A stretch of DNA of 64,000 nucleotides. Origin: a virus (taxonomy: Duplodnaviria; Caudoviricetes). The stretch lies in the IMG/VR virus record IMGVR_UViG_3300049988_000286, positions 288,001 through 352,000 of that record. The stretch is one strand, 5' to 3'. Both the position numbers and the translations under genes were made by a program. Each line of letters opens with the position of its first letter. The first letter of the stretch is position 1. Under the pieces are notes generated by a model. The model was not told the DNA's origin, did no database searches, and was given only the letters and a program-made list of their open reading frames with translations. Positions 15,089 through 51,514 of this stretch are shown here, piece by piece.

Positions 15089-16150
15089 ATGAAGTCTAAC
15101 ATCTATATTTCGCGCAAGGTTCTCAACAAGCAGGACATTATTGACTACGCCACGGATTGTGGTTTCACATCGATGATGCCCGCCGATAGTCTCCACGTAA
15201 CTGTCGTCTATTGTAAGCGCGAAGTTGACTGGAACATCGTTGATCGTGACCAGCCCGAAATGCTCATCATCGAGAGTGCCGAGGACGAGAGCGAGCGGTC
15301 GATCCACAACTTTGACGGTGGGGCTTGCGTCCTAGAGATTACCTGCCCGGAATTACAGGAACGCAACGATGCGCTCCGGGAGCAGGGCATCCATTCCAAG
15401 TTCCCCGATTATCGTGCGCACATCACCCTCACGTACAAGAAACCGAAGAAGATGTCGGTCAAGAAGATCAAGCCCTACATGGGTGCGATCGTGCTCGGAC
15501 CGGAGATCATCGCGCCCGCGAGTTCTGGATGGCAAGAGGAATACAAGGAGGTCAAGCTGATGAAAAGAGAAGTGATCAAAGAGGCTCGTCTCGACGATCT
15601 TGACATCGATGCCACCTATGAGGTTTTTCGTTCCAGCTATGAATCCACGACTGGGCAGTCATGGACTCGCGAGAAGTTTGAAGATCGCGCCCGCAACTGG
15701 ACTTTCTACGGGGACGCGACAGGTTTCGTGGCCTTCCGCGAACAGGCCAGTGGGATGCGTAAACTCGTCGGTGTCGCCGGGGATACCAGCGGCGTCGTCA
15801 TCGGCCTGAAACAACTCGTTGATGAGGGTAAGCCGACATGGGGTGCAGTGAGCGAGAAGATCGCCCGCGCGGCCAAGCGCTTCGGTTTCATCGCCCCCCA
15901 CACCTACCTCGGTGGGGCGCTGGTGATGCGGCTGATCATGAAAGCCATTCCGGCGAGTGTCTTTGGTGGGGTGAAGCCGGAAGTCAATGGCAAGGGTGGC
16001 GTCACCCTCTCGTATGAGGATTTGGGCGAGCAGACGAAGTTTTTCATCGCGAACAAGGCCTACTTCGGTGAACTACTCAACAATCCCTCGTTCTCCGAGC
16101 ATGTCCAGAACCCGGTCGTGAAGAAATTTATCGAGGCGGTTTTGAAATAA
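15089..16150 (+). CDS. Acb1/T4 gp57B-like 2H phosphoesterase fused to an unknown C-terminal domain
   Basis: Two HxT motifs (LHVTVVY, AHITLTY) in the first ~155 aa with Acb1-like spacing; AAGGA RBS. Confidence 0.75.
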   Translation: MKSNIYISRKVLNKQDIIDYATDCGFTSMMPADSLHVTVVYCKREVDWNIVDRDQPEMLIIESAEDESERSIHNFDGGACVLEITCPELQERNDALREQGIHSKFPDYRAHITLTYKKPKKMSVKKIKPYMGAIVLGPEIIAPASSGWQEEYKEVKLMKREVIKEARLDDLDIDATYEVFRSSYESTTGQSWTREKFEDRARNWTFYGDATGFVAFREQASGMRKLVGVAGDTSGVVIGLKQLVDEGKPTWGAVSEKIARAAKRFGFIAPHTYLGGALVMRLIMKAIPASVFGGVKPEVNGKGGVTLSYEDLGEQTKFFIANKAYFGELLNNPSFSEHVQNPVVKKFIEAVLK

Positions 16151-48357: not shown

Positions 48358-49692
48358 ATGCGAACTGTGGAGAGCGTCATGTCAGTCACTAATGTAGCGG
48401 TCAGTGATATCAAGCAGGACACCTTCCGGGTCAAGGGCATCAATGTGCCCGATCCGGAGAAGGCACGGATGTCGCTCACGGACAGGGCGCGGCTCGTCAC
48501 GATTGAGCGGCGCATCCTCGCTGGCGCGCGCAAAGTCGATGAGGTGCTCGCCTCCGGTGATCGCGAGTTTCTAGAATCCTTCGATGCGTCGGTGGAAGCC
48601 GAGTTCGAGACCAAGCGTCCCGTTCGTCCCACCCCTACGCTCGCCGATGATCTCCTCTTTGGCAAGACGCGAGGCCTCCTCAATCCGCGAGCCGAGGACC
48701 GCGCCAAGACGCTTCTGCGCTCCGCGAGGCGTTTCGTCCTCACCGACAGCGCGGCGCGTCGAATCGCGGAGGCAATCCGCCAATATCCCGACATGCTGGT
48801 TGAGCAAGGATGGTTCGCGCGAACCCCTTTCGAGACGTGTTGGATCGAGCTTCCCGCACGACCCTTCCACAGCACGATCGCGCCGGGCAGCGACACCCCC
48901 GACAGCGACGATCGCATCGGTTATCTCTTCCACGGCAGCCGCGTTTATGTCGGCGCTTCGAATGAGTCCGATCGTGATCCCGTGTTCTCCCCGCTCATCT
49001 ATCACCTCCATCACCCCAATAGTCTCGCGGACCAACTTTCGCTAGCGGAAGACCTGTCGGTGTCGCGGGGTCAGTTGGACAATTTCTATTGGGGCCAAAC
49101 AATGGCGCAAGGGTTGTCGATGCCGACCCTTCGCGGTCTGCGAGGGCAGCATGGTTTCGAAGTGGCTGTTGAAGAGGCAAATCGTTCCAAGCTGCGCGGC
49201 ATGAACCTCTTGGGTCTATCCGCTGGCGAAATCCGGAACATCGTCGGTCTCCTCCTCATGATCAACCAGCCCTCCGGGGTGGTGCGGATCGAGGACATCG
49301 AGCATCGCCGCACGCTGACCTCACGGGGTAACCGGCTCTTGATGGGGCACAGCGTCGTGACCCTCAACCTCGATCGCCGCTCCAAGGTGTCGCGCCTTTT
49401 GCGCAAGCCGGTTGGTTCGCACGCGTCGCCGCGCTGGCACGCCGTCATGGATCACTGGTGCCATGATCGAGTAGCGCGCACATCCGGCGACCATACCCAT
49501 GACTGGGATACCGACGATGCCGAAGGGCGCTTGGTGGCACGCTGCCGTGTTTGTGGTGGCCGTCGCTGGAGGCGGCGGATGAAGAATGGTCGTGGCGATC
49601 GTGCGCGTGGTATCGTATCACAGGATCGCATCGTGGCCACCGACAATGACCGCACGATGATCAATGAAGCGAGAAGGGATACTCATGATTGA
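48358..49692 (+). CDS. hypothetical protein
   Basis: 444-aa ORF; TTGACC-N17-TAGATG promoter upstream; SPRWH..DHW motif. Confidence 0.7.
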   Translation: MRTVESVMSVTNVAVSDIKQDTFRVKGINVPDPEKARMSLTDRARLVTIERRILAGARKVDEVLASGDREFLESFDASVEAEFETKRPVRPTPTLADDLLFGKTRGLLNPRAEDRAKTLLRSARRFVLTDSAARRIAEAIRQYPDMLVEQGWFARTPFETCWIELPARPFHSTIAPGSDTPDSDDRIGYLFHGSRVYVGASNESDRDPVFSPLIYHLHHPNSLADQLSLAEDLSVSRGQLDNFYWGQTMAQGLSMPTLRGLRGQHGFEVAVEEANRSKLRGMNLLGLSAGEIRNIVGLLLMINQPSGVVRIEDIEHRRTLTSRGNRLLMGHSVVTLNLDRRSKVSRLLRKPVGSHASPRWHAVMDHWCHDRVARTSGDHTHDWDTDDAEGRLVARCRVCGGRRWRRRMKNGRGDRARGIVSQDRIVATDNDRTMINEARRDTHD

Positions 49693-50005
49693 ACTTTGGT
49701 CGGATGCCCAAATTGCGCAACTCCTCACCCCGGAGCGCCTCGATGCCATCTGGGCACAATCGCACCGCCGCCACCCCTACCCCGTTGACCATGAAGGTGC
49801 GGAAATCAAGTTCATCGCCTATGGCGAGGTCACCGACGATCTCACACAGATGATCGTTGAGGCGCGCGGTCCCGATCTTCGCGCCACCCTCTTCGCCGCC
49901 ATCGACTTCGACAGTAGCGGTAACGTCGGCGCGATTAGGCAGGTTCGCCGTGTCACCGAGATGAAGCCGGTGACCTCGTGGATGCCCGTGCGGGTGACGC
50001 GATGA
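49685..50005 (+). CDS. hypothetical protein
   Basis: AAGGG RBS; overlap coupling. Confidence 0.6.
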   Translation: MIELWSDAQIAQLLTPERLDAIWAQSHRRHPYPVDHEGAEIKFIAYGEVTDDLTQMIVEARGPDLRATLFAAIDFDSSGNVGAIRQVRRVTEMKPVTSWMPVRVTR

Positions 50006-50211
50006 TCCGCCATATTCGCTGGACGCCGCTGCGCAAGAGCGAGGCGATCGAGGAGATCAAATCCGGGAAGATGAACCGCACCGCCTTCATGACCGCGAAT
50101 AACATCTCCGAGGATGAGATGCGTGAGTGGGAGCGAGATGCCGAGAAGGGGCCAAAGGCCCATAGCAGGAAGGCGCGGTATCAACGGGCTCGACGCGAGG
50201 GATTACTTTAA
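50002..50211 (+). CDS. SciP/DUF1153-like small HTH protein
   Basis: RWTPLRKSEAIEEIKSG...NISEDEMREWER matches the RW..RK.E...V.GG...L..EEF..W pattern of SciP. Confidence 0.55.
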   Translation: MIRHIRWTPLRKSEAIEEIKSGKMNRTAFMTANNISEDEMREWERDAEKGPKAHSRKARYQRARREGLL

Positions 50212-50216
50212 TAATA

Positions 50217-50246
50217 TTGACCCGACTCGAAATGCGATTCTAATCT
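50217..50246 (+). promoter_or_regulatory. sigma70-type promoter for a non-coding region
   Basis: TTGACC at 50217; TCTAAT/TAATCT 16-18 nt downstream. Confidence 0.6.
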
Positions 50247-50254
50247 AAGGAACA

Positions 50255-50760
50255 TTATCCGAGGGCTTCGGCCTGACTAGATACGCGTTCGATGGACTTT
50301 GCAGGTGGCTCTTGTCGCCGTGTTCCGGGCTGATGCTTGGCTGGGTAGCCGACCGGGAAGCTGTTGCCGGTTCCACCTCGGGTGGGCACAAGAGACAGCA
50401 ATAGAGGAGGGCGATGTCGTGCTGACAACCCTCCGTATGCGGTTGGTCAAGTATTGGCGGCTGATCGTATAAGCTTCTTCGGATAACCGTTGCAGACCTC
50501 GTGTCTGGGAGAGCGCACCAGTGCCGGGTCTCGGGCGACCACCGGCCAGCTATAAACGCGAATGGTGCGAGCCAGTCCTTTCGATCTCAAAGGAAAGATT
50601 TCTCCCCCTCCATCTCATCACTGGGGTGGAGGGGGATAGAGTTCTATCTCAACTCAAGGAAAGTGTAGAAGGGGAATCAAAAATCGATTACCGCCCGTTC
50701 AAGCAAGGCTTGATAAGGGCAGGGAATCTCGTGGATGAGCGCAGCGAGTCCACGACTATG
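50255..50760 (+). ncRNA. candidate large structured ncRNA of unknown class
   Basis: About 500 nt without a credible ORF; many complementary segments (50255-63/50478-86, 50274-80/50443-49, 50309-15/50388-94, 50406-11/50429-34, 50514-20/50563-69, 50603-12/50627-36); cUUCGg tetraloop. Confidence 0.6.
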
Positions 50761-50821
50761 CTTTCAATAGATGCTTGACGCATTGCACGAACTATGCGAC
50801 ATGGGCCGGGAGGAGAACACC

Positions 50822-51316
50822 ATGTCGCTCAAGTCGATCAACGATAAGCTGCGCAGTCGCGGCTACCGTGAGGTGGAACTCGTTCGTGGACAGGGCTACC
50901 TGTATTTCATCTTCGATGATCGCGGTGACAATTATGACACCGAGTCGGTTATGGTCCCCTATATCAAGCATCACAGCGTCACGGAATGGGTGTCGATGGG
51001 CTGCGATTATGCGGAGCGCAAGCGCGCGGAGATCGCCAATAAGGCGGAAGCGCTATCCTACAACGGCGGTCCGTTCGGTGCATTTGGCTGCCGCATCGAG
51101 AAGGTCTCCTATCACGTCGTCCTTGATGGGAAGCGCTCCTACGGCAATCCCCAGACCACGCGCGATGCTGCGATCAGGCTTGCCTCGCAGACCGGCAGCG
51201 ATCGCTACGATGTGGTGCGGAAGTCGGGCGACCGTCAGGAGACGGTCTACTCGTTCGATCGTAGCTGTAAATTCGCAGGACCGACCTCGCAGCCCTTCAC
51301 CGCCCTCAATCTTTAA
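50822..51316 (+). CDS. hypothetical protein
   Basis: GGAGGAG RBS; TTGACG promoter upstream. Confidence 0.7.
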   Translation: MSLKSINDKLRSRGYREVELVRGQGYLYFIFDDRGDNYDTESVMVPYIKHHSVTEWVSMGCDYAERKRAEIANKAEALSYNGGPFGAFGCRIEKVSYHVVLDGKRSYGNPQTTRDAAIRLASQTGSDRYDVVRKSGDRQETVYSFDRSCKFAGPTSQPFTALNL

Positions 51317-51328
51317 GGAACAACCGCG

Positions 51329-51514
51329 ATGGCCATTACCACACAGAACATCAGGCTCGAACTTTGGGGTGGTGGCCCCAACCCCGAGCAAGACCTCGCT
51401 CATCATGTGTTCTTCAATGGCGAGAACATCGGCTACTATCTGAAGCCCGCAGAGGTCGGAGCAGCCATCGCCGCGAAGCTGATCGCGGATTTCAACGCGG
51501 GGAAGATCAAGTGA
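51329..51514 (+). CDS. hypothetical protein
   Basis: AAGGA RBS. Confidence 0.65.
   Translation: MAITTQNIRLELWGGGPNPEQDLAHHVFFNGENIGYYLKPAEVGAAIAAKLIADFNAGKIK

Follow-up and report, generated by a model that had tools for sequence, protein, structure and literature searches.

A large structured RNA family absent from Rfam, encoded in four copies by a T4-related phage and found on mobile-like DNA of Sphingomonas and Novosphingobium

The intergenic gap at positions 50217-50760 of the DNA analyzed here (hereafter the window, a 64,000-nucleotide stretch corresponding to bases 288001-352000 of the 499,572-bp virus record IMGVR_UViG_3300049988_000286, from a T4-related phage) encodes an RNA of a family that is absent from Rfam. 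The conserved core of this RNA spans ~330 nt, folds into at least twelve helices and two pseudoknots, and very probably belongs to a genuine family of structured non-coding RNA (ncRNA) genes with members in the phage and in bacterial loci. A first-pass annotation of the window had proposed a novel large ncRNA at this place, and this reading was kept because homologues covary, the sequence folds better than its shuffles and no Rfam family matches; conservation above that of the flanking open reading frames (ORFs) further supports it. The gap itself was correctly delimited by that annotation, being bounded by a 77-amino-acid ORF (DUF1153) ending at 50211 and by a gene starting near 50823. We give even credence to a more specific reading, in which the element is a stand-alone gene of mobile DNA whose structured RNA acts in trans and probably takes part in host-element conflict, its function being one that we infer.

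Structure and conservation of the RNA

Codon periodicity was absent from the substitutions separating homologues (p = 0.97 and 0.90), which marks the gap as non-coding. A coding reading was rejected on the same ground, the tiny ORFs over the central hairpin moreover having no consistent frame, start or length. Compared to shuffled sequences, the + strand folded with z = -2.93 and the - strand with z = -2.04; this excess in folding energy, one of the checks proposed at the outset, goes in the expected direction but is modest and suggestive only. None of the 4227 models of Rfam 15 matched 50217-50760 at its gathering score, the only Rfam matches elsewhere in the window being five tRNAs. When the scan was relaxed (E up to 10), a single 21-bit match to STnc400 (threshold 80) was returned and judged to be due to chance. 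The models for GOLLD, ROOL, OLE, HEARO and raiA found no match in either scan, no Intron_gpI or group II intron match was obtained at E up to 10, and ARAGORN called neither a tRNA nor a tmRNA over 49800-51200, in line with the earlier failure to assign the sequence to a tmRNA or a group I/II intron. An intron was also rejected on the grounds that homology begins at a promoter-like box and that the flanks of the four phage copies are unrelated.

Covariation was scored in ten sequences aligned to covariance models of a 5′ domain and a 3′ core. Standard pairs filled 94.9% of the cells in the 5′ domain and 95.4% in the 3′ core, with changes on both sides at 18 of 41 and 14 of 24 pairs, respectively. 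The homologues bear compensatory changes of the kind that the first-pass annotation had proposed to look for: none of 500 column shuffles reached the observed values in either domain, and sliding the partner columns by 1-3 positions left only 35-52% pairing. Fitting alignments to models favors structure; RNAalifold applied to plain MAFFT alignments recovers the same helices. The pairs of P1 and of the pseudoknot 50360-64/50395-99 were counted by script. The + strand is the folded one, as fixed by invariant G-U pairs. The elements of the gene are as follows, in window coordinates.

50217-50245, + strand: promoter-like box with a -35 element TTGACC (50217-22) and a -10 region at ~50239-45, conserved in the four phage copies
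50252-50756, + strand: predicted RNA of ~505 nt, its ends placed by the extent of homology to paralogues and bacterial homologues
50256-50260, + strand: 5′ strand of P1, UAUCC, pairing with 50343-47 by covariation
50263-50274, + strand: P2, a hairpin with a UUCG loop; hairpin at the same place in homologues, with variable loops
50285-50336, + strand: P3 (50285-89/50332-36), P4 (50293-96/50324-27) and P5 (50304-09/50314-19), helices 1-3 of the 5′ domain alignment
50339-50350, + strand: P6, a GGC/GCC hairpin (helix 4 of the 5′ domain) whose loop UGGGUA (50342-47) holds the 3′ strand of P1 and so makes a pseudoknot
50351-50372, + strand: P7, a hairpin (helix 5 of the 5′ domain, 96% paired) whose loop bears the pseudoknot strand GCUGU (50360-64)
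50373-50385, + strand: P8, hairpin CCACC-UCG-GGUGG (helix 6 of the 5′ domain)
50395-50399, + strand: 3′ strand of the second pseudoknot, ACAGC, directly after the invariant CAAGAGAC and covarying with 50360-64
50406-50434, + strand: P9, GGAGGG/CCCUCC with an inner UGUC/GACA (helices 7 and 8 of the 5′ domain, 100% paired, 7 of 10 pairs compensatory)
50436-50472, + strand: P10, a long variable hairpin with eight outer pairs, most of them compensatory among the four paralogues
50473-50491, + strand: conserved joining strand GCUUC...GAUAACCGU
50493-50507, + strand: P11, hairpin CAGAC/GUCUG (helix 1 of the 3′ core, and strain variants)
50513-50569, + strand: P12 domain, an outer GCGCACCA/UGGUGCG around GCCGG/CCGGC (with GUC/GAC) and GC/GC (helices 3-5 of the 3′ core)
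50583-50599, + strand: first small stem-loop, with one copy of the exactly repeated word AAGGAAAG at 50590-97
50603-50636, + strand: central C5/G5 hairpin, its base conserved and its tip hypervariable (4 to ~60 nt elsewhere)
50640-50668, + strand: second small stem-loop, with the other exact copy of AAGGAAAG at 50656-63
50664-50729, + strand: variable linker, A+T-richer in composition
50730-50754, + strand: terminal hairpin CGUGGA/UCCACG without a U tract; G+C-rich hairpin in homologues, often GAGCG-N-CGCUCGG

Many of the helices listed here had been drawn from the single sequence, and most of those held against the homologues. The cUUCGg hairpin (50263-74) is retained in them, and the pseudoknot between GCTGT (50360-64) and ACAGC (50395-99) reappears as GGUGU/ACACC, AGUGU/ACACU, UCGU/ACGA and GUUGU/ACAAC, covarying in nine of the ten sequences (with a by-eye correction of the alignment for the bacterial loci L104, L125 and L126). 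Five of the six GGAGGG/CCCTCC pairs (50406-11/50429-34) are compensatory, CGCACCA/TGGTGCG (50514-20/50563-69) is upheld by the ten-homologue alignment, and covariation or conservation supports both the 10-bp hairpin TCCCCCTCCA/TGGAGGGGGA (50603-12/50627-36) and the terminal GTGGA/TCCAC hairpin (50730-54). In contrast, the helix TTATCCGAG/TTCGGATAA that was to close the 5′ domain is unsupported, because it pairs a 5′ strand that varies without compensation with GAUAACCGU, which never varies among the ten homologues or in a divergent subfamily, and because 50256-60 pairs instead with 50343-47. That alternative pairing, P1, reads UAUCC/GGGUA here and UAUCC/GGAUA, UACUC/GAGUA, UGUUC/GAACA or UGCUC/GAGCA elsewhere, and is fully paired in nine of the ten sequences. 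CTCTTGT/ACAAGAG likewise sets a variable strand against an invariant one and had to be abandoned, whereas TCAAGC/GCTTGA is present in the window but sits in a variable linker. Four of the five pairs of P3 are compensatory; P4 is nearly invariant, which leaves no variation with which to assess its pairing, and invariant strands (AUGGACUUUG and GCCGUGUUCCGGG) accompany the P3-P5 region. P8 is missing from one copy (L004). The P12 domain, which includes the conserved GGGUCnCGGGCGACCACC, is 98% paired with 9 of 16 pairs compensatory.

Homology among the phage copies runs from the TTGAC...GATTCTA box to the G+C-rich terminal hairpin ~540 nt downstream, the latter being the likely 3′ end or terminator. 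At the 5′ edge, TTGAC, CGAnTCG and GATTCTA are conserved in 4 of 4 phage copies, and bacterial homologues present a TGnTAAAT-type -10 element at the matching position. A sigma70-like promoter had been placed here by the first-pass annotation; the box stands, but a scan with the generic sigma-70 consensus called no site in it, and the element is best described as a candidate promoter, proposed from its conservation and position.

Strain variation was examined in a metagenome run (X2) in which two contigs of a near-identical strain cover 50132-50673. They show 10 differences over this region (<2% each), while the pieces of flanking ORFs in the same run are ~2-10.5% divergent with 3-periodic changes; the RNA region is thus more strongly conserved than its flanks. 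Among the changes listed, T50378A and C50498T fall in the loops of P8 and P11, G50575A and an insertion after 50598 fall in linkers, and A50494G together with T50506C converts an A-U into a G-C pair, preserving P11. A variant of the second paralogue is also present in this run. The locus combines compensatory changes beyond controls, non-coding status and conservation above its flanks, as do structured ncRNAs in general.

A dispersed DNA repeat with no RNA function, whether similar to miniature inverted-repeat transposable elements or an array of protein-binding sites, would account for several copies in one genome, for their occurrence on mobile elements and for an inverted repeat bracketed by direct repeats. 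It would leave unexplained the compensatory changes in twelve helices and two pseudoknots, the strand-specific G-U pairs and the conserved promoter-like box at the 5′ edge, and no terminal inverted repeats or target duplications were found at the ends of homology. We consider this explanation barely credible.

Copies in the phage and on bacterial islands

The phage record contains exactly four copies of the RNA, at 338217-338632 (+, the copy in the window), 471084-470657 (-), 257250-256830 (-) and 103834-104243 (+). All were recovered by nhmmer at E < 1e-110, the next match having an E value of about 1, and they are 65-74% identical over the core. Two CUA-anticodon tRNA-like genes (called 'tRNA-Pyl' by ARAGORN; possible amber suppressors) at 102238-102314 (+) and 106351-106425 (-) of the record bracket the 104-kb copy at ~1.5-2 kb on each side.

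Relatives outside this phage were sought by pattern and by covariance model. Three exact patterns derived from the four paralogues gave no match in IMG/VR and were over-strict. The productive pattern, ATGGACTTTG-N18-32-GTGTTCCGGG, was run on metagenome and genome collections, and chance matches (12 and 8) were dropped with covariance models R1 and R2, which represent two sub-domains of the RNA. It yielded two distinct homologues on metagenome contigs (L098-type and L104) and, in species genomes, one copy each in Sphingomonas sp. BK580, Novosphingobium panipatense SM16 and an uncultured alphaproteobacterial metagenome-assembled genome. The covariance models added one more distant member among 151 Sphingomonadaceae and, among 151 Sphingomonas species, two members of a divergent subfamily with a different 5′ domain in which the 3′ core and the 3′ module that follows it are retained. 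The species-genome carriers include three Sphingomonas and one Novosphingobium; 150 other Alphaproteobacteria gave no match. A further match (G038, L123) was discarded as a false positive, as it lies within ORFs and misses the second domain. Searches with blastn found no homologue in 50,697 phage records (INPHARED) or 72,556 plasmids (PLSDB), and two further scans of IMG/VR returned only the already known 17.5-kb L098-type contig. Within these searches, which covered samples or scanned for exact patterns, the family is rare. The 17,518-bp contig (L098/L099, the IMG/VR record behind L127/L128) is a perfect inverted duplication carrying its two matches 2596 and 2595 from its ends, most likely an assembly artefact, and is listed as viral by IMG/VR although it bears a resolvase and a type I restriction-modification (R-M) operon.

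The bacterial relatives are single-copy, and all eight loci resemble mobile DNA. Integrases are present in L104 and L122, small or large serine recombinases in L098, L104, L122, L124 and L135, and IS21 copies bracket the RNA unit in L136. Six of the eight adjoin R-M or methylase genes, of unrelated types: a type I hsdM-hsdS-DUF4357-...-hsdR operon lies directly downstream of the RNA in L125 and L126, a type I hsdM-S-R operon is convergent with it in L098, and it stands beside a helix-turn-helix-Dam methylase, a C5 methylase, NgoMIV and KwaB in L104, a 1638-aa type ISP enzyme in L135 and a 722-aa N6/N4 methylase in L136. L104 corresponds to an L125-type element from which the whole type I operon has been lost and the RNA retained. 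An invertible segment was rejected, since comparing L098, L104 and L125 revealed deletion and rearrangement and no simple flip. A ribbon-helix-helix-like ORF of 70 aa recurs in five bacterial loci.

Two further features of these islands deserve mention. A small HEPN-like ORF (RNPLSHH, Rx4-6H; RNxxxH) is found in L125 (13454-13795, +, 113 aa) and L104 (5157-5420, +, 87 aa) and in no other locus; the two are 75% identical and convergent with the 3′ end of the RNA. The type I operons of L125 (3665-13172) and L126 (2361-11856) harbor extra genes between hsdS and hsdR (DUF4357; 177/360-aa or 487-aa proteins) that recall the prrC-type abortive-infection insertion in a type I cassette.

The RNA of the islands and that of the phage have no companion protein gene in common. 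None of the genes flanking the phage copies is homologous to an island gene, and the only proteins shared by islands and phage are a methylase and one protein of 166 aa, both encoded away from the RNA copies. The methylase, an N6/N4 DNA methylase at 160424-161149 of the phage record, is 45% identical over 242 aa to that of L136. Pfam and PHROG scans found no IscB or TnpB beside the RNA in the phage or in the eight bacterial loci, which sets it apart from omega RNAs and TnpB reRNAs, and no RVT_1 match was found in the whole phage or beside the bacterial copies, as a retron or DRT system would have. A resolvase was rejected as the partner of the RNA: one is found near four bacterial copies and none in the phage.

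The position of the RNA relative to its neighbors bears on whether it could be a cis-acting leader or giant riboswitch controlling the downstream gene (e.g., hsdM in L125 and L126), the 3′ hairpins serving as expression platform. The RNA immediately precedes hsdM on the same strand in these two genomes, it is likewise upstream of and on the same strand as the type ISP enzyme in L135, and its terminal hairpin is terminator-like. However, two of the four phage copies have a divergent gene upstream and a convergent one downstream, because of which we do not regard the RNA as a leader; it is also convergent with an R-M or methylase gene in L098 and L136 and divergent in L104, the locus that kept the RNA after the whole R-M operon had gone. 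Riboswitch or cis-leader membership was rejected on the basis of the convergent genes in the two phage copies, L098 and L136, and such a control element appears very unlikely.

A maximum-likelihood tree places the bacterial copies within the phage paralogues: one group lies beside the window copy, and a second one joins the copies at 257 kb and 104 kb (moderate bootstrap support, 47-82% at key nodes). This topology would fit exchange of the RNA between phage and islands, its direction being unproven. It also invites an analogy with satellites and helper phages, in which satellite-like islands carrying a copy of the helper phage's RNA (or the reverse) might sense, mimic or interfere with one another. 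A loose parallel is the RNA-based immunity of P4 (CI RNA) and P1 (c4), in which a processed hairpin RNA has direct repeats on either side. The placement of bacterial copies within the diversity of the phage paralogues, the two P12 types common to phage and bacteria, the small integrase- or resolvase-bearing islands with defense cargo and the repeat-hairpin-repeat layout could all be read in this way. Against it, the hairpin of the P4 and P1 RNAs is complementary to the flanking repeats, which is not so here; islands and phage have in common no capsid, packaging or regulatory genes, and support at the key nodes of the tree is moderate. Such cross-talk seems unlikely.

The phage itself encodes a T4-type gp23 capsid protein and, according to ARAGORN, 41 tRNA-like genes together with a permuted tmRNA of alphaproteobacterial type. 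This tmRNA and the occurrence of homologues of the RNA in Sphingomonas and Novosphingobium point to an alphaproteobacterium as host, probably a member of the Sphingomonadaceae. The two-piece tmRNA gene lies outside the window, at 15556-15913 of the record, and specifies the tag VNDNDIRMAIAA. A cluster of Ile, Thr and Ser tRNAs includes one with a four-base anticodon (tcca; 402970-403045, -; ARAGORN), possibly reflecting an unusual anticodon loop or a tRNA that resembles frameshift suppressors. The best DNA match to the phage comes from a leaf-metagenome run. The lineage is widespread, as near-identical DNA (window positions 49083-49700 and 50940-51460) occurs at low depth in runs from ~14 studies, among them leaf, phyllosphere, freshwater and wastewater metagenomes and several single-organism runs.

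The repeated word and the function of the RNA

Downstream of the core, the RNA continues with a small stem-loop, the C5/G5 hairpin, a look-alike stem-loop, 45 nt of A+T-richer sequence and the terminal hairpin. The C5/G5 stem covaries, as illustrated by CCCCCCGC/GCGGGGGG in the L004 copy, and the two stem-loops on either side of it carry an exactly repeated word whose two copies are 66-114 nt apart and which is 8-11 nt long in all but one of the ten homologues (7 nt in the remaining one). Eight different words were found: AAGGAAAG in the window, ATGGGAAT, AGGATGATG, ATAGGAATGAT, AGGGAATGACC, AAGTGAGATGA, ACAGGATGATG and GTTGCAG. The divergent subfamily follows the same pattern with one mismatch. 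Since the two sites stay identical in step and are not complementary, their sequences point to both reading, or being read by, one partner. Two candidate roles were rejected. A CsrA-type sponge or Shine-Dalgarno mimic, suggested by purine-rich words, does not fit the words of L122 and L104, and a type III toxin-antitoxin RNA does not fit only two words 66-114 nt apart, followed by genes that vary and are often on the opposite strand.

The same module could be part of a self-processing RNA or ribozyme, modeled as a core that cuts or joins at the two identical words and frees or circularizes the hairpin unit between them. Its large invariant single-stranded strands and two pseudoknots would be in keeping with a catalytic core, and two identical sites do surround a unit of 66-114 nt. 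No Rfam ribozyme model matches, even in the relaxed scan, and the RNA has no internal guide complementary to the words. We think it improbable that the RNA is of this kind.

A replication origin, the alternative that the first-pass annotation had put beside an ncRNA, is the less likely of the two and on its own account unlikely. In its most explicit form, transcription would activate replication through a structured primer RNA that stays hybridized where the G5/C5 hairpin and the A+T-richer stretch lie, as in ColE1 RNA II or the T4 oriF and oriG transcripts; the 500-kb genome would then have four such origins, and the islands would be replicated via their one copy, perhaps by the phage. In line with this, the copies are dispersed (at ~104, 257, 338 and 471 kb), each with a promoter-like box, and in all ten homologues the G-run/C-run hairpin and second word copy are followed by 45 nt of 36-47% G+C, compared to 56-62% for the core. 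Direct repeats surround the hairpin, the RNA has no travelling protein partner, and no replication gene was recognized on the islands. On the other side, a pseudoknotted core of ~330 nt with pairing selected throughout goes far beyond the needs of known primer RNAs, and the word differs among the four copies, so that as iterons they would require four initiators. Furthermore, none of the 72,556 plasmids bears a homologue and the element is missing from related phages. GC skew, one of the measures suggested for recognizing an origin, carried no signal and was uninformative.

Returning to a stand-alone gene of mobile DNA, we regard it as probable that the RNA acts in trans. A role in the conflict between defense and anti-defense is the most likely single reading of its function, one that we put forward tentatively because of the R-M and other defense cargo of the islands, the early-type promoter and the multiple diverged copies. 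In the proposed mechanism, the RNA would be transcribed from the conserved box, and its core would either serve as the platform of a factor available in any host cell or be catalytic in its own right. The twin stem-loops, the same within an RNA and different between RNAs, would set the specificity of each individual copy, probably through base pairing to a target nucleic acid. The RNA might be used early after entry of the mobile DNA, against host defenses; in the phage it would alleviate restriction or counter defense, and on the islands it would control or protect the cargo.

Several observations weigh against this proposal. No complement of the word of at least 6 nt was found at a homologous place in the RNA, and no target complementary to it in the phage genome or, in cis, in the bacterial loci. 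The ORFs next to the phage copies had no function recognized in Pfam and PHROG scans, and L122 and L124 have no recognizable R-M gene. The link with R-M may merely reflect the gathering of defense cargo by islands next to their backbone genes. Covariance model R1 found no member in 30 phage relatives from IMG/VR (chosen by capsid protein), a complete genome of 382 kb included, and the RNA is therefore not essential to this group of phages. Lastly, none of the RNA sequencing runs contains the sequence.

At its broadest, the proposal would make of these genes a new class of large RNA, a protein-free weapon or regulator of mobile DNA against host defenses (an RNA-only restriction-alleviation or anti-defense factor with a programmable twin-loop address, or else a new ribozyme) exchanged between a megaphage and R-M islands; this is a rather doubtful extension, though one open to experiment, as the carriers Sphingomonas sp. 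BK580 and N. panipatense SM16 are in culture and give direct experimental access to the function, the phage itself being uncultivated.

Comparison with known RNAs

Several types of known RNA share part of this architecture. The HEARO or omega RNA of IscB and the reRNA of TnpB are likewise structured scaffolds, a few hundred nt in length and encoded on mobile DNA, in which a short variable part possibly gives specificity; in contrast, there is no IscB, TnpB or other adjacent nuclease gene and no HEARO match here, and the variable word occurs twice and internally rather than at the end of the RNA. The P4 CI RNA and the P1/P7 c4 antisense RNA are ~70 nt long, and their hairpin carries the complement of flanking repeats. 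They resemble the present module in having direct repeats on both sides of a hairpin RNA within one phage or satellite transcript, and differ from it in that no complement is found here and that a conserved core of ~330 nt precedes the module. ColE1 RNA II and the T4 oriF and oriG transcripts have their own promoter, a length of ~0.5 kb and a G-rich/C-rich element, with several dispersed copies in a T4-type genome. The promoter-like box, length, hairpin and dispersion of the phage copies are alike, whereas structural conservation is much stronger here and no plasmid homologue was found. Type III antitoxin RNAs (ToxI), which phages copy to escape, are also ncRNAs of defense loci with repeated words that are possibly processing sites; here, however, there is neither a tandem array nor a consistent downstream toxin gene, the HEPN-like small ORF is adjacent only in L125 and L104, and the large core has no counterpart in ToxI.

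Large, intricately folded RNAs of bacteria and phages are rare, the landmarks being RNase P and the group I and II introns and, later, GOLLD, ROOL and OLE. The RNA described here is of a kind already known, the large ornate RNAs that phages and mobile elements encode and that have no known function (GOLLD, ROOL, HEARO), and the family itself matches none of these. What is unusual about it is that one genome has four paralogues, that the word changes together at both of its sites and that the R-M neighborhoods are of several types (type I, type ISP and type II modification genes); covariation was clear from just ten sequences, and supports both pseudoknots. A close comparison is with GOLLD and ROOL, large ornate RNAs of phages, prophages and bacteria, 0.5-0.8 kb long, that form families of their own in Rfam. 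All are of the same size class, rich in helices and pseudoknots, encoded by stand-alone genes of phages or mobile DNA with no obligatory protein-gene neighbor, and of unknown biochemical function. The present family differs from them in sequence and structure, in a range comprising Sphingomonadaceae and one megaphage, in its four diverged paralogues and twin stem-loop 'address' module, and in having R-M rather than tRNA genes as neighbors.

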